Positions 8,922 through 58,830 of a stretch of 64,000 nt of DNA are shown piece after piece. The notes under the pieces were generated by a model. The model was not told where the DNA came from. It made no database searches and saw only the letters and a list, made by a program, of their open reading frames with translations. Within the stretch, counting starts at the first letter, position 1. Each line of letters begins with the position of its first letter. Made by a program: the position numbers and the translations under genes. The stretch comes from Candidatus Daviesbacteria bacterium. Its GTDB lineage: Bacteria > Patescibacteriota > Microgenomatia > Daviesbacterales > UBA10151. The stretch spans positions 6,920 to 70,919 of the forward strand of contig JACOXI010000003.1 in NCBI GenBank assembly GCA_016176335.1. Reading direction: 5' to 3'.

Positions 8922-9830
8922 TCACTTTTCCCTTTCCACCATATATTGCACCATTTCCGAAAATAACTTTCTCATTTTGGCATCAGAAGTAATCTTTGGT
9001 ATTACTCTTTTTGCTCTAAAAGCATATTTTAACGCTTTGGCCTCTGCCTTGTCCACTGATTCTACTTCCCCATCCAAAATATCATCTCTAATCTGAAAAG
9101 CAATCCCTGCATTCTCCCCGAATTCTTTTATCCCGCGAAGCCTTGGCGAAGTGGGACCTGCTCCTGCCAGAATTGCTCCGAGTTTAAGAGGGCCTGAAAT
9201 AGTATATCTGGCTGTTTTAAGTTTAGCTGTAAGCTTCGGGTCAGCATGGGCAACATCAAGCATTTGTCCTATGGCAGTATCCAGCATTGTTTGGGAAAAA
9301 AATCTTAAGGCCTGGTTTTTTAATTTATCTTCAAAGTTGCTTTCAGTAATAATTTTTATTGCCAGAAAAAAGCCTGCATCTGCCAAAGTGATGGCCTGCT
9401 CCACTCCTACGCGCTTATACAAGGAGGGCTGACCACGTCTTTTGGGACTTTGATCAATTATGTCGTCATGGGCCAAAATGGCAGCATGAAATATCTCATA
9501 AGCTGCAGCAATTTTAATAATAGAGCTTTCAGCTGTCAGTATCGCTTCGCCCGCCTTTGGCGTGGCTTCGCTGTCAGCTTTCAGACTTTTTTTGTCTTTG
9601 TCTGATTGCTGATAGCTGATAGCTGATGACTCTTTTGCAATCTCATATCCCAACACCACCAAAGTTCCCCTGATTCTCTTGCCTCCCTTGCAGGCTTTGA
9701 TGAATTTGTCAACCAAAGGCAATAGACTTCCGGAAGTCTTGCCAACCCCATTCCTCCATTCTTTTAACAATCTCTTTAACTCTTTATCAATGTGTTCAAC
9801 TGTTTTTTGACTAAATATCTTAAAATCCAT
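8922..9830 (-). CDS. Polyprenyl (geranylgeranyl/farnesyl) diphosphate synthase; carries an in-frame repeat insertion
   Basis: The first Asp-rich motif is 'AHDDIIDQSPKRRG'. A ~95-bp repeat-derived insert encodes 'SYQQSDKDKKSLKADSEATPKAGEA'. Confidence 0.85.
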   Translation of the reverse strand: MDFKIFSQKTVEHIDKELKRLLKEWRNGVGKTSGSLLPLVDKFIKACKGGKRIRGTLVVLGYEIAKESSAISYQQSDKDKKSLKADSEATPKAGEAILTAESSIIKIAAAYEIFHAAILAHDDIIDQSPKRRGQPSLYKRVGVEQAITLADAGFFLAIKIITESNFEDKLKNQALRFFSQTMLDTAIGQMLDVAHADPKLTAKLKTARYTISGPLKLGAILAGAGPTSPRLRGIKEFGENAGIAFQIRDDILDGEVESVDKAEAKALKYAFRAKRVIPKITSDAKMRKLFSEMVQYMVEREK

Positions 9831-11401: not shown

Positions 11402-12022
11402 ATGATAAAAGCTGTATTTTTCGATATCAATGACACTTTAACTAATCACTCTCGCGCACAAGAAGTCGCCATTAAGAAAATGGCCGTCTTTTTATCTAAA
11501 CATGATGAAACAGAATTTATCAAAGTTTGGAAAGAGACAGCCAAAAAATATTGGGAGCTTTTTGAGAAAAGGAAAATAACCTTTGAGGAGCAGCGCCTAC
11601 AGAGAGTAGAGTCCGTCTGGAATCATTTTAAAGCTAAATTGACACCTGAGCAGATTAACCAATATGCCAATTATTATGTTAGTTATTATGAGCAAGTATT
11701 AAGTATAAACCCCACTCTTAAAGTTTTTCTTGAATTATTACAAACAAACCACATTCCAGCGGGTATTATATCCAATGGACATGGACACATACAAAGGAGG
11801 AGATTAAAAGTTATCGGAATTGAGCCACACTTGACTAACAGGCTGGTCTTTATTTCTGAGGAGATTGGCATTGCTAAACCGGATGAAAAAATATTCATAC
11901 AAGCAGAAAAAGCTGTTGGTGTTTCCTCTTCAGATATCCTTTTCTTTGGAGATGACCTTAAAAACGATATTGAACCAGCTAAAAAAAGAGGTTGGAGAAC
12001 TGTACTGATAACACCTCCGTAG
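11402..12022 (+). CDS. HAD-superfamily hydrolase (subfamily IA)
   Basis: 'FFDINDTL' is the DxDxT motif I. The C-terminal 'FFGDDLKNDIEPAKKRG' is motif IV. Confidence 0.75.
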   Translation: MIKAVFFDINDTLTNHSRAQEVAIKKMAVFLSKHDETEFIKVWKETAKKYWELFEKRKITFEEQRLQRVESVWNHFKAKLTPEQINQYANYYVSYYEQVLSINPTLKVFLELLQTNHIPAGIISNGHGHIQRRRLKVIGIEPHLTNRLVFISEEIGIAKPDEKIFIQAEKAVGVSSSDILFFGDDLKNDIEPAKKRGWRTVLITPP

Positions 12023-12063
12023 TTTGCTTCTTGTGGATGCTTTTTGATGTGACGAGCCGATTA

Positions 12064-13233
12064 ATGGTAGAATTGCCTTTCATGAAAAGCAAACTTTCTC
12101 TTCGCGACTTTCCTTCCGCTCAAAAAAGACGCCAGTTTTTAGAAAAAGAGTTAAAACTAGACTTGGACAGTCTTGGTAGTTTCACTTTTTCAGAGGAAGA
12201 AGTCACCGGTAGAAATATAGAAAATCTAATTGGAGCAACACATATTCCTTTGGGTATCGCTGGTCCACTCAAAATCATAAATCATAAATCATCAATCATA
12301 AATCACTTTATACCATTGGCCACTACCGAAGGAGCATTGGTAGCTTCTTTATCCCGCGGCTGCAAGGCCATCACAGAAAGTGGCGGGACAGAAGTTTTGG
12401 TGGAAAATATCGGTATCACCCGCGGCCCGGTATTTAGGACTGAAAGCTTGCAGCATGGACAACAAATCAAAAAGTGGGTGGAGCAAAACTTCACCAAGTT
12501 GGCCAAGGTATCAAAAAGTACTTCTTCCCATCTGAAATTACTGAAAGTAGAACCAGCCATGGTGGGACGTAATTTGTGGCTTCGTTTCTATTTTGATACT
12601 GAAGATGCCATGGGCATGAATATGGCAACAATTGCCACAGATGAGGCAGTGAAACTAATTGAAAAGGAAACAAAAGCTAAGTGTATATCTTTGGCAGGAA
12701 ATTATGACATTGACAAAAAGCCCTCTTGGCTGAATTTCATTTCCGGGCGGGGTAAAAAGGTCTGGGCAGAAGCTGTCTTACCCAAAAAAGTGGTCAGGGA
12801 AGTGCTTAAAACTACGCCGGAAAAGATGGCCGAGGTAGTCTATAGAAAATGCTTGCTGGGTTCAGCAGTCAGCGGTTCATTGGGCTTTAATGCTCATTTT
12901 GCCAATATACTCTCCGCCATCTTTCTGGCCACCGGCCAAGATCCCGCTCATGTGGTGGAAGGCAGTTTGGGAGTGACCACTGCCGAGGTTATGCCCAATG
13001 GCAACTTATATTTCTCCGTCTATCTGCCATCTTTGGTGGTGGGAGTAGTTGGCGGAGGAACACATCTGCCTACCCAAAAAAAAGCCTTAGAAATTATGCA
13101 GGTGAACAATGTGCTAGAATATACTCGGGCTGTGGGAGCAGCTGTTATTTCTGGTGAAATTTCATTAATTGCCTCTCTTTCGGAAGGAAGTTTGGCAAAA
13201 GCACACCGGAAACTGGGTAGAAAAGGAAAATAG
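12064..13233 (+). CDS. hmgA: Hydroxymethylglutaryl-CoA reductase (class I, archaeal/eukaryotic type)
   Basis: 'ENLIGATHIPLGIAGPLKI...TTEGALVASLSRGCKAI' matches. The track ORF starts at 11992 inside the upstream gene, and an in-frame ATG at 12064 is the more likely start. It contains an in-frame 'atcataa' tandem repeat that encodes 'IINHKSSIINH'. Confidence 0.85.
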   Translation: MVELPFMKSKLSLRDFPSAQKRRQFLEKELKLDLDSLGSFTFSEEEVTGRNIENLIGATHIPLGIAGPLKIINHKSSIINHFIPLATTEGALVASLSRGCKAITESGGTEVLVENIGITRGPVFRTESLQHGQQIKKWVEQNFTKLAKVSKSTSSHLKLLKVEPAMVGRNLWLRFYFDTEDAMGMNMATIATDEAVKLIEKETKAKCISLAGNYDIDKKPSWLNFISGRGKKVWAEAVLPKKVVREVLKTTPEKMAEVVYRKCLLGSAVSGSLGFNAHFANILSAIFLATGQDPAHVVEGSLGVTTAEVMPNGNLYFSVYLPSLVVGVVGGGTHLPTQKKALEIMQVNNVLEYTRAVGAAVISGEISLIASLSEGSLAKAHRKLGRKGK

Positions 13234-13383
13234 GAGCGAAGTCACAAGTAATCAAAAAATGTAGTGCAGTTGAGCGCACCACTTATTCAATGTTTCGAAA
13301 CCAGAATCTGGCGCGAAACAAACACCAAGTGAGCGATCCGGTCGCGCGAACGGTTTTTTGTACTGTGACGAGCGACAAACATT
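13234..13383 (+). repeat. ~145-bp dispersed repeat element, copy 1 (fills the hmgA / HMG-CoA synthase intergenic region)
   Basis: It is near-identical to 26611..26759 and 57806..57960. It shares 'agcgaagtca...caaaaaatgt.gtgcagttgagc...ggcgcgaaac...gcgagcgacctggtcgcgcgagcggttttttg...tgacgagc'. Confidence 0.8.
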
Positions 13384-14427
13384 ATGATAGGCATTGTTTC
13401 TTACGGAGTTTATATACCAATATTTAGGATCAAACCATCGCAAATTGCTCAAGCTTGGGGTAAAGGGTTTGGGGAAATTGAAAAATCTTTGGGGGTATAT
13501 GAGAAGACAGTTGCCTCATATGATGAGGATGCTATAACTTTGGCAGTTGAAGCCTCATACCAAGCTTTAGTAAACGCCCAAATCAAACCACAACAAATAG
13601 ATGCCATCACAGTTGGTTCAGAGTCCCATCCGTACGCTGTAAAACCATCCTCAACTACAGTGGCAGGAATTTTGGGGTTACCAGAAGAATTGCTGGCAGT
13701 AGATTTGGAATTTGCCTGCAAAGCAGGAACAGCAGGGATTCAACTACTTGCCGACTTTTCCCAGGCAGGTCATGCCAAATACTGCTTGGCAGTGGGATCT
13801 GATGTTGCTCAATCGCGTCCATCCGATGTTTTGGAATACACCGCCTCATCCGCCGCCGCAGCCTTTATTTTGGGTAAAAGTAATATCATTGCCAATATAG
13901 TAGATTTCACGTCTTTCTCTTCTGATACTCCTGATTTTTGGAGAAGAGACAGCGAAAAATTTCCCTCTCATGCAGGCAGATTTACAGGCTCCCCTGCTTA
14001 CTTTGCCCACGTATTAGGTGCATCAGAAAGGATGTTTGAGAAAACTAAAATGAAGCCTCAAGATTTTGATTATGCTGTTTTCCATATGCCCAATGCCAAA
14101 TTTCCCAAAGAGGCCGCCAAAAAATTGGGATTTACTCCCAAACAACTTGAGGCAGGATTTATTGTTCCCCAAATAGGCAACCCCTATTCTGCCTCATCAA
14201 TGATCGGTTTGGCTGCCATCTTGGATGTGGCAAAGGCAGGAGATAAAATTTTTATGTGCTCATATGGATCGGGAGCCGGTTCAGATGCTTTCATGTTTGA
14301 GGTAACAAAAGAAATTACAGCTCATCAAAAAAGAAATCAGGAAACTGTAACAAAACAAATTAAAGATAAAGAGTATATAGATTACTCACTAATTGCTAAA
14401 AATATTTTGACAAAGTACAGGATCTAG
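13384..14427 (+). CDS. Hydroxymethylglutaryl-CoA synthase (archaeal type)
   Basis: 'MIGIVSYGVYIPIFRI' is the archaeal HMGCS N-terminus. It sits in the mevalonate operon with thiolase and DUF35. Confidence 0.85.
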   Translation: MIGIVSYGVYIPIFRIKPSQIAQAWGKGFGEIEKSLGVYEKTVASYDEDAITLAVEASYQALVNAQIKPQQIDAITVGSESHPYAVKPSSTTVAGILGLPEELLAVDLEFACKAGTAGIQLLADFSQAGHAKYCLAVGSDVAQSRPSDVLEYTASSAAAAFILGKSNIIANIVDFTSFSSDTPDFWRRDSEKFPSHAGRFTGSPAYFAHVLGASERMFEKTKMKPQDFDYAVFHMPNAKFPKEAAKKLGFTPKQLEAGFIVPQIGNPYSASSMIGLAAILDVAKAGDKIFMCSYGSGAGSDAFMFEVTKEITAHQKRNQETVTKQIKDKEYIDYSLIAKNILTKYRI

Positions 14428-24351: not shown

Positions 24352-24963
24352 TCAATTAAACTGATTTTGGGCTTTTTCCAAGCCCTGTTCCAAAAGAATA
24401 TCTAAAGCTTTAACAGCCTGTTTTATCATATGTTTTACTTTTGATTTTTCAGAATGCCTGAATGGTTCCAATACAAACTTATTTGTATCAACATGAGCGT
24501 GTTTATGTTCTGAACTTTGAGTTCGTAAATTGCCGATACCTAATCTTACTCTGATAAATTTATCTGTACCTAAAGAATTAATTATGGATTCCACTCCATG
24601 ATGTCCTGCTGCTGCTCCTCCCAATCTGACTTTAATTTTTCCCAAAGGTAAATCCAAATCATCATGAATCACAATTAGATCGGTAGTCGACTCGCCTCGC
24701 GAAGCGGGTAGTTTGTAGTATGTAGTAAGGAGTTTTACAGCTATCCCAGAGTTATTCATATAGGTTTGAGGTTTTACAAGGGTTAAGCGGGAAGCGTTAA
24801 GGGTGAAGTCTAAAATTTCAGACTTAAATTTTTCTTCATATTTCCAACTTTCCCCTTGCCCCTTTACCCTTTTCCCTAACTCCTCCACCACCATAAACCC
24901 CAAATTGTGCCTGACTTTGGTATATTTTTCCCCTGGATTTCCCAAACCAACTATTAATTTCAC
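24352..24963 (-). CDS. pth: Peptidyl-tRNA hydrolase; carries an in-frame GC-rich insert
   Basis: 'MKLIVGLGNPGEKYTKVRHNLGF' matches. An insert 'LPASRGESTTDLIV' comes from the 'tcgcctcgcgaagcggg' motif. Confidence 0.9.
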   Translation of the reverse strand: MKLIVGLGNPGEKYTKVRHNLGFMVVEELGKRVKGQGESWKYEEKFKSEILDFTLNASRLTLVKPQTYMNNSGIAVKLLTTYYKLPASRGESTTDLIVIHDDLDLPLGKIKVRLGGAAAGHHGVESIINSLGTDKFIRVRLGIGNLRTQSSEHKHAHVDTNKFVLEPFRHSEKSKVKHMIKQAVKALDILLEQGLEKAQNQFN

Positions 24964-25787
24964 CCTCTTAATGCCTCCAAGATTTGCTCATGGATTAACC
25001 CATTAGAAGCTACTATATTTACTCTTTCCTTAGTCCAATCAGGCTCCTTACCTTCAAAATCTGTCACCATCCCACCTGCTTCCCTAACAATCACTGTCCC
25101 AGCCACAAAATCCCAAGGATATGCATAATTTACATGTAGATCTAAGATACCTTCTGCCACCATACTCAATGAAGCTACAGCTGATCCAAAAGAATAAATA
25201 TAACCTATTTTTGTAATTAACTTGTTCACATATAGATTCAGTTTATGCTGCCTTTTTAGGTTGTGGCCAAAATCTAATACCCCAACTGATGCAGTCAAAC
25301 CTTTTTTCTTGCTAACTTGAATGGCTTTCCCATTCAAATAAGCAGAGCTTGCCTTTCCTTCTGACAGGAAAGACCCCTGTCCTTTTTGTGCCCAATATAA
25401 ATTGTTAAAACTGACGTTATATATTACGCCTAAAATTGGTTTTCCCTCCCCTAAAAGACCAATGGATACAGAAAAATATGGGATACCTGAACCGAATGAG
25501 ATGCTACCATCTAAAGGATCTACAACCCAAGTAAATTTAGATTTTTTATCTATTTTTGCTTCCTCTTCAGATATTAAGTTATGGTCGGGAAAACTAGAAG
25601 TTAATATCTTTACTATGATTTTTTCAGCTTCAAGGTCTGCCTCAGTTGCATAATCTGTGGGATCTTCATGCTTAACATTTTTATGTTGATCCTTACCAGA
25701 ATATTTTTTTATTATCTTCCCAGCCTCCAAAGCAGCTTGTTTGGCAACTTTTAAAAATTGATTATCCATGTTTTTAAATCTTTTCAA
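24960..25787 (-). CDS. Inositol monophosphatase family protein
   Basis: 'WVVDPLDGSISF' is the IMPase motif. It is a paralog of the next gene. Confidence 0.8.
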   Translation of the reverse strand: MKRFKNMDNQFLKVAKQAALEAGKIIKKYSGKDQHKNVKHEDPTDYATEADLEAEKIIVKILTSSFPDHNLISEEEAKIDKKSKFTWVVDPLDGSISFGSGIPYFSVSIGLLGEGKPILGVIYNVSFNNLYWAQKGQGSFLSEGKASSAYLNGKAIQVSKKKGLTASVGVLDFGHNLKRQHKLNLYVNKLITKIGYIYSFGSAVASLSMVAEGILDLHVNYAYPWDFVAGTVIVREAGGMVTDFEGKEPDWTKERVNIVASNGLIHEQILEALRG

Positions 25788-25800
25788 AAAGACAAAGTCC

Positions 25801-26607
25801 TTATGTTTTTAAAACATCTAAGATTTGGTTGTGCAAGACACCATTTGATGCCACAATTTCTAATCTTTTTTTTGACCAGTTAATTTTTGCTCCTTTGCTA
25901 TCTGTTACTTTACCACCTGCCTCAGTCACAATAATTGCCCCTGCGATACAATTCCAAATATTAGCTTCATTTGCAAACCCGTCAAAAGAACCTCTGCCTA
26001 TTAATGCCATCATTAATACATCCCCTCCCAAAGCAAATGGGTAACGGATTTTATCAATCAAAGGCAAAATATACTTTTGAGTTTTACTCATCCTTTTTTC
26101 ACGGTGGGCAAAATCTATTCCCAAAATTGCCCCATCCAATTTTTTTGTTTGAGAGACCTTTATCTTCTTACCATTTAGATATGCACCTTTACCTATAGCA
26201 GCATGGTAAAGATCTTTCGGTACAACATGATAAATAACACCCAAGATAGGATTATTTTTGTGTAATAAACCAATGGAAACTGTATATGTTGGTAAACCCA
26301 CTGAAAAGGCAATTGTCCCGTCCAAAGGATCAATAACCCATGTGTAGTCTGATCCTAAATCTGAGATACCTTTTTCTTCGGCAATATAGTTAAATTTGGG
26401 ATAGTTTTTGTGCAGAATCTTTAAAATTGCCTTCTCTGATTCTAAATCTGCTGCTGTTACAAAATTACTGTGATCACCATTTTTATTTTTTTTATCTAAG
26501 TCTTCACCAAGATATTTAGAAATTATTTTCCCTGCCTCAAGTGCAGCCTGTTTTGCTACTTTCAAAAATTTTAGATCGTTAGATCGCAAGCTTTGCTTAT
26601 CATTCAT
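25801..26607 (-). CDS. Inositol monophosphatase family protein (tandem paralog)
   Basis: 'WVIDPLDGTIAF' is the IMPase motif. The track start (GTG at 26631) lies inside the repeat element. The internal ATG ('MNDKQSL...FLKVAKQAALEAGKII') aligns with the paralog N-terminus. Confidence 0.75.
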   Translation of the reverse strand: MNDKQSLRSNDLKFLKVAKQAALEAGKIISKYLGEDLDKKNKNGDHSNFVTAADLESEKAILKILHKNYPKFNYIAEEKGISDLGSDYTWVIDPLDGTIAFSVGLPTYTVSIGLLHKNNPILGVIYHVVPKDLYHAAIGKGAYLNGKKIKVSQTKKLDGAILGIDFAHREKRMSKTQKYILPLIDKIRYPFALGGDVLMMALIGRGSFDGFANEANIWNCIAGAIIVTEAGGKVTDSKGAKINWSKKRLEIVASNGVLHNQILDVLKT

Positions 26608-26610
26608 ATT

Positions 26611-26759
26611 AAGTAAAGATAGCGAAGTCACAAGCAGTCAAAAAATGTTGTGCAGTTGAGCATACCACTTTATTCATGACCGATTCCATTCCATGGCGCG
26701 AAACGAACACAAGCGAGCGACCTGGTCGCGCGAGCGCTTTTTTGCGCTGTGACGAGCTA
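26611..26759 (+). repeat. ~145-bp dispersed repeat element, copy 2 (fills the PRTase/IMPase intergenic region)
   Basis: It aligns end-to-end with copies at 13234..13383 and 57806..57960. Its 'tgacgagctag' end supplies the PRTase stop codon. Confidence 0.8.
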
Positions 26760-27398
26760 GCTTGTCAATAATTGTACCACCTCTTCATCTGATACAGGCT
26801 CAAATTTGTGATAAAACTGGCCAACTGCCTGGAAATACTCAGGTGTTTCCAAAACCACTACCTCCCCGAACTCTCCTAACTCCCTGATGATTTTCTCTAC
26901 TGGTTCTTTACTTGCCACAGGTATGGCCAAGATTATTTTTTTAGCTTCATGCCTTTTTAAATACCTGACAGCAGAAAGTGTTGTTGCACCTGTGGCAATC
27001 CCATCATCAACAAGGATTACAGTTTTACCTCCGACATTAAGAGGTTTTTTTTCTCGCCTATATAAATCCTCTCTCCTTGTTATCTCTTCTACCTCATTTT
27101 TCACTGTTTCCTTCAAATCATAAATCGTTGATCCTAAATCATCAATCAAATTCTGATCCCACACCACCTCACCATCCGGATCTACTGCTCCCAAAGCCAA
27201 TTCAGGCTGGGTCAGGGCACCTATTTTTCTGGTCACAATAATATCCAAGGGTAAGTTTAATGATTCTGCTACTGCGGATGCCACCACCACTCCTCCTCTG
27301 GGAATACCAAGTACCAGGACATTATCTTTACCTTTGTAGTGTTTAAGATGTTTTGCGAGCAATTTCCCGGCTGATTGTCTATCTTTAAAAATCTTCAT
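26757..27398 (-). CDS. Phosphoribosyltransferase (type I PRTase fold)
   Basis: 'VILVDDGIATGATTLSAV' is the PRPP-binding motif. Confidence 0.7.
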   Translation of the reverse strand: MKIFKDRQSAGKLLAKHLKHYKGKDNVLVLGIPRGGVVVASAVAESLNLPLDIIVTRKIGALTQPELALGAVDPDGEVVWDQNLIDDLGSTIYDLKETVKNEVEEITRREDLYRREKKPLNVGGKTVILVDDGIATGATTLSAVRYLKRHEAKKIILAIPVASKEPVEKIIRELGEFGEVVVLETPEYFQAVGQFYHKFEPVSDEEVVQLLTS

Positions 27399-31180: not shown

Positions 31181-31708
31181 ATGATCTTGACAAGCAGAAT
31201 TGCTCTTGTAAAATTACCCTCTATGCTTTATCCTGAGGGAGAGATGGAACAGACACCAAAACAACCTCCCACAGCTGAGGGGCCTAAACTTCCTCAAACT
31301 GAAGAAGAGCTGAATCAAATACTTAATACTGCCCGTAGAGCAGGTGCCATAGCGGCTATTAACTCCATACACGAGGAGATAGCACAAACACTTAGCACTA
31401 ATACAGGATATATGGAACTAATTCAATTGGGGTTAGCTAGGGCTGCTGCAACTGGAGGTTTTACTCGGCAAAACTTTAGACCGATACTTCAGTATCTTGA
31501 GGAAATCTTGAATGCTGGAAAAAAAGAAGTAACAATCCTCTTAAAATATAAACAAGCGGCAGTAGAGGGGAGAATCAATTTTGCTGAAATTGGTAGTGAT
31601 CCACAAAGTAGATTACAGGTTTTGGATATTCATCCCCAGGTTCAACCATCGTCAACAACTCAAGATGTTTCACCAGCGAATCCTAGCTCTCCTTTAACAC
31701 ATAAATAG
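31181..31708 (+). CDS. Hypothetical protein
   Basis: No motifs are recognised. Its 3' end overlaps the first 46-bp direct repeat. Confidence 0.3.
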   Translation: MILTSRIALVKLPSMLYPEGEMEQTPKQPPTAEGPKLPQTEEELNQILNTARRAGAIAAINSIHEEIAQTLSTNTGYMELIQLGLARAAATGGFTRQNFRPILQYLEEILNAGKKEVTILLKYKQAAVEGRINFAEIGSDPQSRLQVLDIHPQVQPSSTTQDVSPANPSSPLTHK

Positions 31709-31738
31709 CTTTTTTGGTGCCGCCGGACTTTTTAACCA
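31693..31738 (+). repeat. 46-bp direct repeat, left copy, flanking the BrnTA cassette
   Basis: It is 45/46 identical to 32331..32376, which encodes the Fic C-terminus. Confidence 0.8.
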
Positions 31739-32326: not shown

Positions 32327-33403
32327 TTACTTTAACACATAAATCGCTTTTTTGGTGCCGCCGGACTTTTTAACCAAACCCTTTTGACGCAAAAATTTAA
32401 GTTCCCGCAGCACTGTATCATCAGAATGATCCGGGAAAATTTTCCTAAAATCCTTATTGGACATTCCCTTGTGCCTGTGGATATATTCCATAATCATCAT
32501 CTGCCTCTCATTTAAGGCCACCTGCTCCCCCAGCTTATCTTTAATCCTGGCATCAGTGGAAATTCTTTGAACCTTTTCCTTAACTCTGTTTAACTCTATT
32601 GCCACACCCTGGGTAAAATACTCCAGCCAGGGAGTTAAATCCCTCTCATGTGTATCTAGTACAAGCTGGTTTGATACAGCTTGTAATGTTAAGTAATAGT
32701 CCATAGGGTTTTCATCAAAATACTCTTCAAATGAGAAAAATTTTCTAATGTCGTAATTATCCAAAAACATCACCAGTGTGGCAACTGCTCTTGCCACTCT
32801 GCCGTTTCCATCAACAAAAGGGTGAATCCTGGCAATTTCATAATGAATAATTCCTGCTTTAATGACCGGGTGGGTACTTTTTCCCTCATCAGAGTTGATC
32901 CAATTAACCACATCCTCAATTTGATATGGCACCTCAACTGCCGGAGGAGGCGTGTAAGATACTTGTCCGGTTTTGGTATTGCGGATTACTACCTGACGCA
33001 GCCTAAACTTACCGCATGACTCCGGAGGCAAGATTTTGTCTGTTGTCAGCTTGTGAATTTCCAAAATTGTTTCAAGTGTAAAATTATATGCACCGGAAGT
33101 GCCGATTTGGGCTTGCACCGCATCAATAAATTTTAAGACATTTCTGTAATTTATTATCTCCCAAACATCTCTATCCCGGGCAATTACTTCTTGTCCGTCT
33201 AAAACATCCCTAACTTCTTCCTCTGACAGCGGATTTCCTTCAAGATGAGTTCCGTGGTGAACTGTCCGCTCTATGGCCTCTTTTCTAAATTTTGCCTCCC
33301 AGGCAGGTATCAGCGGAGCATTCATAATAACTTCTCTCGCAGCCTCAACAATACCTATGTCTTTGAGGATTTTATTGGTAATTGTATACTTGGGAATAAA
33401 CAT
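32327..33403 (-). CDS. fic: Fic/DOC family protein with C-terminal wHTH
   Basis: 'HPFVDGNGRVARAVATL' is the Fic motif HPFx[DE]GNGR. Confidence 0.85.
   Translation of the reverse strand: MFIPKYTITNKILKDIGIVEAAREVIMNAPLIPAWEAKFRKEAIERTVHHGTHLEGNPLSEEEVRDVLDGQEVIARDRDVWEIINYRNVLKFIDAVQAQIGTSGAYNFTLETILEIHKLTTDKILPPESCGKFRLRQVVIRNTKTGQVSYTPPPAVEVPYQIEDVVNWINSDEGKSTHPVIKAGIIHYEIARIHPFVDGNGRVARAVATLVMFLDNYDIRKFFSFEEYFDENPMDYYLTLQAVSNQLVLDTHERDLTPWLEYFTQGVAIELNRVKEKVQRISTDARIKDKLGEQVALNERQMMIMEYIHRHKGMSNKDFRKIFPDHSDDTVLRELKFLRQKGLVKKSGGTKKAIYVLK
32331..32376 (+). repeat. 46-bp direct repeat, right copy (= 3' end of fic coding sequence)
   Basis: It encodes '...VKKSGGTKKAIYVLK*' of Fic on the minus strand. 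Confidence 0.8.
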
Positions 33404-33485
33404 GATTATAGCTATCAGTCTTCAGCTATCAGCTTTCAGACTGTACCTAAAAATGTCTGACGACTGACGACTGAAAGCCGACGAC
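33404..33485 (+). repeat. Palindromic 'CAGCTATCAG...GTCTGACGACTGACGACTGA' element (copy A)
   Basis: It matches copies at 42343..42422 and 56706..56785. Confidence 0.7.
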
Positions 33486-42288: not shown

Positions 42289-42346
42289 TAAAAAAGCCCT
42301 TGCAAGTTCCCAAAGATTAACTTTAGAAACTTACAAGGGCCTTATT
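42289..42346 (-). terminator. Terminator/attenuator-like hairpin immediately upstream of argH RBS (minus strand)
   Basis: On the minus strand 'aaggcccuuguaaguu' pairs with 'aacuugcaagggcuu' and is followed by 'uuuuuuaa'. It lies between the leader region and the argH SD. Confidence 0.45.
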
Positions 42347-42422
42347 TCAGCTTTCAGACTTCAGCTATCAGCTTTCAGACTTTTGTAATTGTCTGATGAC
42401 TGACGCCTGACGACTGATGACT
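42343..42422 (+). repeat. Palindromic CAGCTATCAG/GACTGA element (copy B) in the argH leader
   Basis: The sequence is 'cagctttcagacttcagctatcagctttcagactt...gtctgatgactgacgcctgacgactgatgact'. Confidence 0.7.
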
Positions 42423-42457
42423 AATCAAGACGGTGCCACCTTGCTTAAATTTTGCTA

Positions 42458-42643
42458 CAAAAAATCCTCCATTTCGGAGGATCACTGTAGAAAATTTATC
42501 TCTTACAGCGCTCCGTTGCCGACACGCTTGTTGAATTTTACAGTTCAACTTCTGTCATACTCTATCCTAAGACTTTGCTTGGGACTGACGTATGCTGCTT
42601 GCCCGCTGCGGCGGACTCAAACGCATTTAAAATATTAAATTGT
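42458..42643 (-). ncRNA. Candidate small RNA / argH leader RNA with consensus sigma70 promoter and intrinsic terminator
   Basis: On the minus strand the promoter is TTGACA(42678-42673)-N17-TATAAT(42655-42650). A GC-rich, structured ~190 nt follows. It ends in the hairpin 'uccuccgaaauggagga' plus U6 (42481-42458). The 73-aa + strand ORF here has no coding support. Confidence 0.4.
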
Positions 42644-42649
42644 AGATAC

Positions 42650-42678
42650 ATTATATCTAAAGAAAACTTATTTGTCAA
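42650..42678 (-). promoter_or_regulatory. Consensus sigma70-type promoter (TTGACA-17-TATAAT) driving the candidate sRNA/arg leader
   Basis: Both hexamers match exactly with 17-bp spacing. I read this directly from the minus strand. Confidence 0.5.
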
Positions 42679-42706
42679 ATCAATTAATGTTTGTTAAAGT
42701 GTAATT

Positions 42707-42967
42707 ATGGCGAAACAAAATCAGACCTCTTTCCGAAAAGAGCTAATCCAGCAACTTATCACCCTCTCCACCTCTGCCTTTGGTTTGGCAGCTGCTTTGG
42801 CCTGGAATGATACTATCCAGCAAACAGTCAAGGAATTTATCGAGCCAAGAATTCCAGGCTCAGGGATTTTCTCCAGATTTATATATGCCGGTATAGTCAC
42901 AATTTTAGGTGTAATTATCACTATCCAGCTGTCCCGTCTGGCCTCCCGTTGGGGACTAAAGAGGTAA
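42707..42967 (+). CDS. Small membrane protein (two predicted TM helices)
   Basis: It is 86 aa with hydrophobic segments 'LITLSTSAFGLAAALAW' and 'FIYAGIVTILGVIITI'. Confidence 0.35.
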   Translation: MAKQNQTSFRKELIQQLITLSTSAFGLAAALAWNDTIQQTVKEFIEPRIPGSGIFSRFIYAGIVTILGVIITIQLSRLASRWGLKR

Positions 42968-56532: not shown

Positions 56533-58830
56533 TCATAACACTAATAACTTCATCTCTCCCCAATTGGGGCCTACTTTTAGATCCACCACTACTGGTACAG
56601 ATAATTTTAGGGCATTTTCCATTTTATCTTTGACCATTTGGGCAATTTCTTTAACGCTCTTGGGGTCACACTCAAACAACAATTCATCATGAACCTGGAG
56701 GATGAGTCGGCAGCTATCAGATCGTTCGCTGCGCTCACTGTCAGCTTTCAGACTGTCTGACGACTGATGACTGATGACTGATAACTCCTTATCAATTTCC
56801 ACCATGGCCTTTTTGATCATATCTGCTGCTGTTCCTTGAACCGGATGATTGATGGCTGCTCTCTCACCAGCTGCTTTGATGGCGTGATTTGAGGCTGTAA
56901 GTTCAGGGATATATCTTTTCCTGCCCCAAAGAGTTTCAACATACCCCCTTTCATATCCAAAGGCTAAAGTCTTTTGCATCCACTGGGAAACTTTGGGGAA
57001 TTGTGCAAAATATTCCGCAATATATGTTCGCGCCACCTCATATTCCACCCCTAACTGACGGGACAAGGCATGGGGGCCCTGACCATATAACGTTGCAAAG
57101 TTCATGGTTTTACCTACATTTCTTTGCTGTTTTGTAATTTTATCAATTGGCATTTTGAAAATTTTACTGGCAGTTGCTACATGAATGTCTAATCCTTCTC
57201 TGAAGGACTTTCTTAATCCCGGATCATCTGCCAAATGAGCCATAATCCTAAGCTCGATTTGTGAATAATCAGCTGCCAAAAGTACCTTGCCTTTGGGAGC
57301 AATGAAGGCGCGTCTTATTTCTCCACCCTCCTCACCTTTAATTGGGATATTTTGCATGTTTGGGTTTTGAGAAGACAGCCTGCCTGTGGCAGCTCCTTCC
57401 ACATTAAAAGTGGAGTGAATCCTGCCATCTAATCCTACAGATTTAGGCAAGGCATCTATGTAGGTTGATACCAGTTTGAAAAGCTGGCGATACTCTAAAA
57501 GTAATGGCACTACAGGATGAGCTGCTACCAACTCATGAAGGGTGGCCTCATCTGTTGATCTACCAGTTTTGGTCTTTCTCACCACTGGTAATTTAAGTTC
57601 GTCAAACAGAATCTGCGACAGTTGCTTTGGGCTGTTCGGATTAAACTCATGTCCTATTTTTGAGTAAATTTCTTTTTCTAATTTAATTAATCTACCTTTT
57701 AAGGCTTTCCCAAGTCTCTCTAAAAACCTTAAATCTATTAGTACACCAGTTTTGGACATCCTTTCTAAAACTGGCTGTACAGCTAAATCCAAATCCGTGG
57801 TATTTATGGAGTTAGCGAAGTCAGAGGTAGCCAAAAAATGTGGCGCAGTTGAGCGCACATCCTTATCCATGCTTGAATTACCTACTTGGCGCGAAACAAG
57901 TCCCAAGCGAGCGACCTGGTCGCGCGAGCGGTTTTTTGCATCCTGACGAGCTACTCCCACACCTGGAATCCTACCAATCAAACTTTTAAACTCCAATTCT
58001 TCAAACAATTTAACTACTTTTTCTTTATCAAAATCATGAACCTCACACTTCTTCAAATCTAACTTAATTGGGGCTTTGCCATCTAAGGTGGCTAGTTTTT
58101 TACTCATTACAGCATCTTCTGCACCTTCTGCCAACAGCTTTTGCATTCTTTGCGGTAAAGTTTTTAAATTCTTGGGACGGTAAATTTCTTCAATCGTGCC
58201 AAACTGGTGTATTAATTTTGTCGCAGATACATCCCCTATTCCAGAAACTCCCGGGATATTATCCGATGCATCTCCTGCCAGCGCCTTATAATCAACCAAA
58301 AGTTTGGGTGCAAATCCATATCTTGCCACAAACTCTTCCTCCCCATACAGCCCCACATCCGCAAGGGTTTTTTTAGGCATAAAAACTTTCACTTTTCCAT
58401 TAATCAGCTGCATGATATCCCGATCACCTGTCACAATAATAATTTCTAATTTCAAATTTTTAATTTTTAATGCTTGGCTTGCCAGTGTGGCAATCAGATC
58501 ATCTGCCTCATAACCTGATAAGCTAAATTGCGGCATGTTAAATGCCCTGATGACCTCATGCACTCTGTGATATTGATTACCCAATGCCTGATCCAGCTCA
58601 CGTCTTGTGGCTTTATATTGAGTATAAGCTTGATGTCTAAATGTCGGCCCCCTTTCATCCCAGGCAACGGCCAGAAATGTAGGTTTAAGCTCATTTAAAA
58701 CCTTCAGCATCATTGAGGAAAATCCATATACAGCATTGACCAGTTCTCCTTGGGAAGTAGTAAAAGGAGGAGTAGCATGATAAGCCCGATGCAGCAAAGC
58801 ATTACCATCAACTAAAACCAGTCGTTTCAT
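56533..58830 (-). CDS. polA: DNA polymerase I (5'-3' exonuclease + polymerase domains; no evident 3'-5' exonuclease domain); carries two in-frame repeat inserts
   Basis: The N-terminal 5' nuclease is 'MKRLVLVDGNALLHRAYHA'. The Pol A motifs 'DYSQIELRI' and 'QVHDELLFE' are present. Inserts lie at 57806-57960 (the 145-bp element) and 56706-56785. Confidence 0.9.
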   Translation of the reverse strand: MKRLVLVDGNALLHRAYHATPPFTTSQGELVNAVYGFSSMMLKVLNELKPTFLAVAWDERGPTFRHQAYTQYKATRRELDQALGNQYHRVHEVIRAFNMPQFSLSGYEADDLIATLASQALKIKNLKLEIIIVTGDRDIMQLINGKVKVFMPKKTLADVGLYGEEEFVARYGFAPKLLVDYKALAGDASDNIPGVSGIGDVSATKLIHQFGTIEEIYRPKNLKTLPQRMQKLLAEGAEDAVMSKKLATLDGKAPIKLDLKKCEVHDFDKEKVVKLFEELEFKSLIGRIPGVGVARQDAKNRSRDQVARLGLVSRQVGNSSMDKDVRSTAPHFLATSDFANSINTTDLDLAVQPVLERMSKTGVLIDLRFLERLGKALKGRLIKLEKEIYSKIGHEFNPNSPKQLSQILFDELKLPVVRKTKTGRSTDEATLHELVAAHPVVPLLLEYRQLFKLVSTYIDALPKSVGLDGRIHSTFNVEGAATGRLSSQNPNMQNIPIKGEEGGEIRRAFIAPKGKVLLAADYSQIELRIMAHLADDPGLRKSFREGLDIHVATASKIFKMPIDKITKQQRNVGKTMNFATLYGQGPHALSRQLGVEYEVARTYIAEYFAQFPKVSQWMQKTLAFGYERGYVETLWGRKRYIPELTASNHAIKAAGERAAINHPVQGTAADMIKKAMVEIDKELSVISHQSSDSLKADSERSERSDSCRLILQVHDELLFECDPKSVKEIAQMVKDKMENALKLSVPVVVDLKVGPNWGEMKLLVL
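56706..56785 (+). repeat. Palindromic CAGCTATCAG/GACTGA element (copy C) in-frame inside polA
   Basis: The sequence is 'cagctatcag...ctgtcagctttcagactgtctgacgactgatgactgatgactga'. It encodes 'SVISHQSSDSLKADSERSERSDS'. Confidence 0.7.
57806..57960 (+). repeat. ~145-bp dispersed repeat element, copy 3, in-frame inside polA (antisense to the gene)
   Basis: It aligns over its full length with the 13234..13383 and 26611..26759 copies. It is translated as 'ARQDAKNRSRDQVARLGLVSRQVGNSSMDKDVRSTAPHFLATSDFANSINT'. Confidence 0.8.

Follow-up and report, generated by a model that had tools for sequence, protein, structure and literature searches.

Previous studies have reported that QMITE1/2 of Coxiella extend 1-50 bp into functional genes at their 3' ends (PMC5896051), and gene-end overlap of structured small repeats has also been documented for the enterobacterial RU/ERIC (PMC2759123). 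The RPEs of Rickettsia insert in frame, and Correia elements are known to be processed by RNase III (PMC10969869). At operon gene junctions, -4 overlaps link MIRU ORFs to the genes on either side (PMC12548453). In the present study, we analysed a 64-kb window (the whole stretch of DNA under study, 64,000 nt) and found a ~145-nt palindromic repeat, three copies of which lie on its + strand. The family is new and its kind is already known: its behaviour is common to known small repeats, and its sequence is not. Full-text searches of a paper collection, directed in part at Candidate Phyla Radiation (CPR) bacteria or Patescibacteria, found no account of such repeats in CPR bacteria. The undescribed family probably represents a MITE/RPE/QMITE-like mobile element that is palindromic, old and non-autonomous and whose presence is tolerated in one orientation.

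The Daviesbacteria element resembles a bacterial MITE in its length, its dispersed copies, its terminal inverted repeats and its lack of a conserved ORF; unlike a MITE, it has no consistent target-site duplication. It is also similar to the RPEs, which are palindromic, ~100-150 bp long and dispersed as old, decaying copies with no known associated transposase. As with the RPEs, stop-free frames permit residence in housekeeping proteins, here the linker of polA and the C-terminal tails of the phosphoribosyltransferase (PRTase). It differs from them in that it comes from a different phylum (CPR / Patescibacteria), has a branched fold shown by covariation and shares no sequence or peptide similarity with RPEs, the NCBIfam and Pfam RPE models giving no match. 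Furthermore, RPEs lie inside ORFs, whereas the Daviesbacteria copies lie mostly at gene junctions. QMITE1/QMITE2 and ERIC (RU-1/2/3) are likewise highly structured and overlap gene 3' ends, giving them C-terminal residues and stops (PMC5896051; PMC2759123), and they likewise exist as full-size and small internally deleted versions. Compared with QMITE and ERIC, the Daviesbacteria element has a lower copy number and far more diverged copies (55-84% identity); QMITEs also have recognisable terminal inverted repeats with 2-4 bp direct repeats and some IHF sites, whereas the Daviesbacteria element has no consistent direct repeat. Insertion at operon junctions and an ORF with -4 overlaps recall MIRU, the same arrangement being found at one locus (L003b) and partly at two others (L001 and L002). 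However, MIRU units measure 46-101 bp, can occur in tandem and lack a long hairpin, whereas the Daviesbacteria element is a single 145-nt folded unit, and only a minority of its copies have a coupled ORF. Likeness to Correia elements and REPIN/BIME doublets consists in end-to-end hairpins co-transcribed with neighbouring genes. Correia elements differ in duplicating TA and in carrying promoter and IHF elements, and REPINs in their 20-40-nt REP units with a GTAG-type motif and in their accompanying RAYT gene; no such feature was seen in the Daviesbacteria element. As long-lived folded doublets, REPINs are believed to move in single-stranded form.

The three window copies (Table 1) were 75-77% identical to one another in pairwise comparison. 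With an nhmmer model built with all three, they gave E-values of 1e-46 to 1e-48; the covariance model gave copy 2 a score of 142 bits, and the 52-nt core had one match in the window versus 0 in 100 shuffles. No fourth copy was found in the window by nhmmer or the covariance model. The core of copy 2 begins with TAGCGAAGTC and ends with GACGAGCTA, and its closing stem can be extended outwards (AAGATAGC / GCTAGCTT). The preliminary description of this DNA had placed a repeat copy at 26611-26759, between the PRTase and inositol monophosphatase (IMPase) genes. Our results agreed with both statements: each end was correct to ~5 nt, and the flanking ORFs were placed on either side of the element. 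The PRTase, IMPase and polA proteins of the window were 100% identical to their counterparts in the public record of the Daviesbacteria MAG from which it comes. At copy 1, the left-end TAG (13231-13233) is the stop codon of HMG-CoA reductase, a mirror image of copy 2 at the PRTase.

Table 1. Repeat copies, flanking genes and parts of the fold of copy 2 (window positions), with the copies found at the PRTase/IMPase junction of other loci
Feature	Position	Strand	Remarks
Copy 1	13231-13376	+	Between HMG-CoA reductase (11992-13233, +) and HMG-CoA synthase (13384-14427, +)
Copy 2, ~145-nt palindromic element	26618-26761; core 26620-26759; extended stem 26616-26763	+	The family's '+' representation, antisense to flanking genes
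Copy 3	57812-57956	+	Inside polA (56533-58830, -), in frame, stop-free
IMPase paralogue 1	24960-25769	-	MDNQFLKVAK...
IMPase paralogue 2, real CDS	25801-26607	-	ATG 26607; mechanical ORF listing 25801-26631
Spurious GTG-initiated extension 'MTSLSLLN'	26608-26631	-	Open frame leaving the element's left stem
PRTase gene	26757-27398	-	Pfam Pribosyltran on homologues
Closing stem, 5' half	26620-26646	+	P1 TAGC 26620-26623; invariant GAA loop; P2 GTCACAAGC 26627-26635; P3 CAAAAAAT 26639-26646
Closing stem, 3' half	26737-26759	+	P3 CTTTTTTG; P2 GCTGTGAC; invariant GA loop; P1 GCTA; includes complement of PRTase stop
Arm P4	26649-26709	+	P4a 26649-26651 with 26707-26709; P4b GTTGAGCAT 26655-26663 with GCGCGAAAC 26696-26704; variable loop enclosed
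Arm P5	26713-26735	+	GCGAGCG with CGCGAGC, tandem G.A
L012 junction			Full copy, different subfamily
L011 junction			Copy truncated at IMPase ATG
L015 junction			Mini-copy, 51-nt core, both termini kept
L017 junction			45-nt remnant
L021 junction			Third subfamily

Exact-pattern scans found the family only in Candidatus Daviesbacteria-like contigs, namely 3 genome contigs and 7 metagenome stretches (several of them redundant), and the other Daviesbacteria contigs carried 2-3 copies each. No member was found in the viral contigs scanned, and a phage or plasmid origin was rejected, since blastn against phages and plasmids gave no element match. Copies from the same genome were no more alike than copies across genomes. 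Subfamilies were spread over unrelated loci and genomes, and truncated and internally deleted copies were present. No near-identical copies were seen, the maximum identity being 84%; thus recent movement is undocumented. The flanking genes differed from copy to copy (PRTase/IMPase, EF-P/galU, gatA, thyA/dcd, rpsB/tsf and HMGR/HMGS). The genome is very compact, with most spacers shorter than 50 nt, and the copies occupy whole spacers: junction copies begin 0-8 nt past the upstream stop and end 7-25 nt ahead of the downstream start. Of 13 independent loci, 12 carried the element antisense to the genes around it. Copy 1 was the sole exception; its flanking genes lie on the + strand, yet the element strand is the same as in the other two window copies, and all copies on one contig share one strand. 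Sequences in the common orientation had one or two stop-free frames, whereas the opposite orientation had stops in all three. As to target-site duplication, no consistent direct repeat was found, and the outermost dinucleotides covaried as inverted repeats; L003b alone had a 7-nt direct repeat (ATGAGTG), which was not flush with the termini. Among 20 window ORFs, neither a transposase nor any candidate mobilising enzyme was found.

We compared the PRTase/IMPase junction with element-free orthologous loci (L024, L025/L026 and L027), of which L027 is the closest relative (81% aa identity). There, the PRTase TGA and the IMPase ATG overlap as ATGA, and the PRTases end QLLS* or QLLK*; the L027 junction reads ..CAATTGCTAAA-ATGA-ACGAGGATTTTTTAAAA. 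The window has ~156 nt between ..TTATTGAC and ATGAATGAT.., which consist of the element and a short A/T-rich tail. Since the element-free relatives, the closest included, have the ATGA overlap, the window junction carries an insertion. These results indicated that the two genes, as read from the compared loci, ancestrally overlapped as ATGA. Arrival of copy 2 would have split a translationally coupled PRTase-IMPase pair and donated a stop codon. The syntenic order in other Daviesbacteria loci is PHP-like gene, PRTase, IMPase and Pth. Downstream of the PRTase in another element-free genome (L016) lies a short, different G+C hairpin (1212-1251; ATCCCGACGAATGTCGGGAT).

The stop codon of the window PRTase (TAG, 26757-26759) corresponds, on the opposite strand, to the terminal CTA of the element. 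Together with the last Ser codon (26760-26762), it lies within the terminal stem of the insert (..AGCTAGCT..), which provides both. The gene ends QLL-T-S-TAG (ACA AGC TAG), and the native end is QLL-x-TGA; most of the PRTase homologues (n = 120) finish ..DEEV[VI]QLL followed by 1-4 residues. AGC, TAG and the last A of ACA match the terminal stem sequence A(A/G)GCTAGCTCGTCAC, which is common to copies at unrelated loci. The element therefore donates one codon, one base and the stop to the PRTase, replacing the native last codon and TGA. It had been proposed that the string 'tgacgagctag' gives the PRTase its last codons and stop. The stop and the Ser were indeed element-derived, but inside that string only the stop is coding, and the Ser codon is formed by the next 3 nt. 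The overlap was to be regarded as coincidental if PRTases of repeat-free genomes ended with the same residues. The repeat-free orthologues end QLLS* or QLLK* with TGA; the window end differs from these, which argues against a coincidental overlap.

At the other side of the element, the GTG at 26631, from which the mechanical ORF listing starts the IMPase, falls in the GTGAC stem of the repeat. Orthologous IMPases begin MNDDFLK, MNEDFLK or MEDKFLK directly at the junction, and the public annotation MBI2018123.1 (268 aa) begins at ATG 26607 (MNDK...). Neither a GTG-started nor a TTG-started form of the IMPase was present in the protein collection searched. The preliminary description was therefore right that the GTG-started 'MTSLSLLN' is spurious, an artefact of the ORF listing, and that ATG 26607 is the true start. 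Because ATG 26607 is both the orthologous and the annotated start, the IMPase protein is unaffected by the element. The end of the PRTase was changed by the element, and at the IMPase the ATGA overlap was lost; all three specific claims of the preliminary description on these gene ends withstood its own proposed comparison with orthologues. The tandem IMPase duplicate (24960-26607) was found only in this genome among the fetched loci, and the syntenic loci of other Daviesbacteria have one IMPase. The IMPase beside copy 2 also carries a 9-codon insertion, QSLRSNDLK, after codon 4 (26569-26595) compared with all orthologues seen, and this insertion partly repeats the start region (NDK / NDLK).

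The same junction was also occupied in other lineages (Table 1). In these, the PRTase continues 6-12 codons into the junction copy and stops at ..ERASSSQ*, ..EASSSRQ* or ..TEAGSSQYKKALER*; the element-translated tails read ..TLLERASSSQ, ..EASSSRQ, ..QLLTEAGSSQYKKALER and ..QLLKQASSSGQKAPLD. The L021 copy most resembled the one within polA of a different genome (L022; 81% across 73 nt) and was less like the window junction copy. The PRTase tree was star-like and does not separate repeated insertion from ancient insertion followed by loss. A single old insertion that later underwent conversion and precise loss, instead of repeated insertion, may account for the recurrent occupancy of one junction.

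Copy 3 is translated within polA (765 aa), where it forms part of the linker joining the 5'-nuclease domain to the polymerase domain and adds ~47 residues. This linker is hypervariable across Daviesbacteria, ranging from ~10 to 80 residues. The polA frame reads the first half of the copy in a different frame and the second half in the gene-sense element frame. At the same polA site, P0145/L022 has a copy with conserved termini and an interior of subfamily C, and other polA orthologues carry remnants, e.g., ..ATSDFA.. in P0128.

The fold was analysed in an alignment of 13 full-length copies. It consists of a ~20-bp interrupted closing stem and two internal arms, and the base of the closing stem is invariant (GC-GAA-GUC / GAC-GA-GC). 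The 5' strands of P1-P3 pair with 26737-26759, and these pairs covary across copies; as terminal inverted repeats, AGCGAAGTCACAAGTAATCAAAAAAT pairs with ..TTTTTTGTACTGTGACGAGCT over ~20 interrupted pairs. P1 has the form NNGC/GCNN, with the outer dinucleotides TA/TA, CA/TG, CG/CG or TG/CA. P2 is GUCAC.AGUA/UACU.GUGAC, and P3 is A6/U6, with AAGGUA/UACUUU or AAAGCA/UGCUUU in two copies. The long-range arm P4 is GUUGAGCGC/GCGCGAAAC in copy 2, and fully compensatory versions occur elsewhere (GCUAAUCG/CGAUUAGC, GUUUUGUG/CACAAAAC and AUUUUGUA/UACAAAAU); within P5, 7 copies have C-G and 5 have U-A at pair 108/130. Across the alignment, 92.5% of cells were paired, and double-sided changes were found in 22 of 35 pairs, with compensatory changes in 6 of 6 helices. 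None of 500 shuffles reached the observed level, slid controls gave at most 9 such pairs, and RNAalifold gave the same helices. Wobble pairs had initially suggested the + strand as the folding strand (G-U versus A-C cells, 11 to 4); this was rejected when the count became 12 to 8 (p = 0.5) with 13 copies, and 88% of cells were Watson-Crick. Owing to this near balance, the folding strand is not assignable from wobble pairs. The near-symmetry is what a DNA-level or two-strand constraint would be expected to give.

We also considered known structured elements. Rfam searches gave nothing at the gathering score for the window, at E <= 10 around copy 2, or at E <= 0.5 for five loci with other subfamilies. 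No terminator-like site was found in 26300-27000, and no promoter-like sites were found within or next to the element. An intrinsic terminator, GCGAGCGG-U6, was rejected, since the U6 pairs with A6 and covaries and the scan was negative. For a hammerhead ribozyme, the CUGAnGA and CGAAAC-like strings are in the wrong order, 'CUGAC' is a covarying stem strand, and Rfam was negative. The GAA/GA loop is not a classical k-turn, its register misfitting a 3-nt bulge followed by tandem G.A. Retrons, integron attC sites and CRISPR were also rejected: the neighbours are syntenic housekeeping genes, and there is neither a reverse transcriptase or integrase gene nor a GTTRRRY core. No tRNA or tmRNA was found.

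The interpretation as a mobile element is favoured because subfamilies are dispersed, empty sites exist, the copies form a decay series and one copy lies in frame. Such an element would have spread in trans by an enzyme acting on a folded single strand. A folded single-stranded intermediate would be the most likely route, since the internal arms covary and not the termini alone. In gene-dense operons, it would survive only when oriented so as to leave one or two frames free of stops and to introduce no terminator; once resident, it would be co-transcribed as a structured spacer and would break PRTase-IMPase translational coupling. The covariation of the internal arms, which exceeds the need of a transposase binding terminal inverted repeats, could instead reflect a host-level RNA function. 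The main rival is a host-selected, cis-acting structured RNA in operon transcripts (a processing site, stability element or insulator, e.g., an RNase III substrate) that uncouples or tunes the downstream cistron. We consider this rather unlikely. It would account for the strongly conserved fold with compensatory changes in all six helices, for the constant location within co-directional, tightly packed gene strings and for the orientation bias relative to transcription (12 of 13 loci); moreover, the lack of a terminator means that read-through is expected, and Correia and ERIC elements work in this way via RNase III and RNase E (PMC10969869). However, the genes flanking one copy are unrelated to those flanking another, and the closest relatives lack the element and have kept the ATGA overlap. 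Copies also decay via internal deletion and truncation, one is translated within polA, and the ratio of G-U to A-C cells together with the predominance of Watson-Crick pairs gives no sign that the mRNA strand specifically folds.

Two further explanations assign the element a gene of its own. That the copies are genes for small non-coding RNAs, read from the '+' strand and so antisense to the operons around them, seems very unlikely. The + strand folds somewhat better (alifold energy, -30.9 vs -21.1 kcal/mol), and one strand is common to all copies on a contig, but neither promoter-like nor terminator-like sites occur within the element or beside it, the flanks are unconserved, and the U-run is a covarying stem strand instead of a terminator tail. 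One copy in polA, the truncation of others, the absence of a significant G-U excess on the + strand and the negative Rfam result speak against it as well. It is just as improbable that the element is a small, translationally coupled gene of ~50 aa, like a MIRU ORF, whose start overlaps the upstream stop and whose stop overlaps the downstream start. At L001, L002 and L003b, an ATG of the element frame does overlap the upstream TGA as ATGA; the L003b frame also ends ATGA on the downstream start, and the window frame ends with TAA one base ahead of ATG 26607. Nevertheless, the MIRU-like arrangement is complete in 1 of 12 copies (L003b), partial in three and missing at the upstream end of copy 2, which has no start codon near the PRTase stop. 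Only 4 of 12 copies keep the gene-sense frame (SSQYKKPLARPGRSLEVCFAPS...VVRSTALHFLxTCDFA) intact; the remaining ones have stops or 1-nt shifts with equal nucleotide conservation, and polA uses a different frame for the first half of its copy. Protein homologues were also lacking: a phmmer search of the window peptide against 1.84 billion representatives gave no real homologue, the sole match being a tandem-repeat artefact; four element peptides had no match at E <= 10 in Pfam/NCBIfam, RPE models included; and a hybrid consensus query gave no match. A bolder version of the mobile-element interpretation, which we hold to be unlikely, is a site- and orientation-specific mobile unit. Its three-way fold (invariant base, tandem G.A per arm) would be active as a single-stranded DNA or RNA intermediate and would home to ATGA junctions of coupled genes. 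This would explain why, in separate lineages, three subfamilies occupy the PRTase/IMPase junction while the ATGA is intact in the closest relatives, and why ATGA flanks three other copies on both sides. If true, ATGA homing would constitute a new mechanism of targeting in a group, the CPR bacteria, that to our knowledge otherwise has few known mobile elements.

For annotation, these results mean that the PRTase TAG stop and the false long IMPase start stem from the repeat and not from the genes, and that orthologous PRTases gain 6-12 residues from the same family. They also show that palindromic repeats of the RPE-like, 'protein-sculpting' sort occur in Candidate Phyla Radiation genomes, which are ultra-small and gene-dense and in which such repeats would survive only at exact gene junctions or in disordered linkers. 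A covarying branched fold combined with recurrence at one junction offers a tractable case for how repeats move and whether hosts adopt them.

Other repeats and a long gene-free stretch were observed in the window. The largest gene-free stretch at an ORF cutoff of >= 90 aa is 42289-42920; it spans 632 nt and lies upstream of a RecF/SMC-like gene. A CopG-antitoxin-like ORF, next to a Fic/DOC gene (32327-33403), is flanked by a 47-nt direct repeat (31692-31738 and 32330-32376; 98% identity). A second, unrelated palindromic repeat family, of the CAGCTATCAGC / CTGAAAGCTGA type, was found at 56689-56787 (polA), 9573-9627 (polyprenyl synthetase ORF 8922-9830) and 33414-33485 (intergenic), as well as at L017 520-660. 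It reads '..ISxQxSD..SLKADSE..' in polA, just ahead of the QVHDE motif, and also in the polyprenyl synthetase. At the same loop, many Daviesbacteria polA orthologues carry either this second-family peptide or one of the 'VIPAKAGI..GMT' type.
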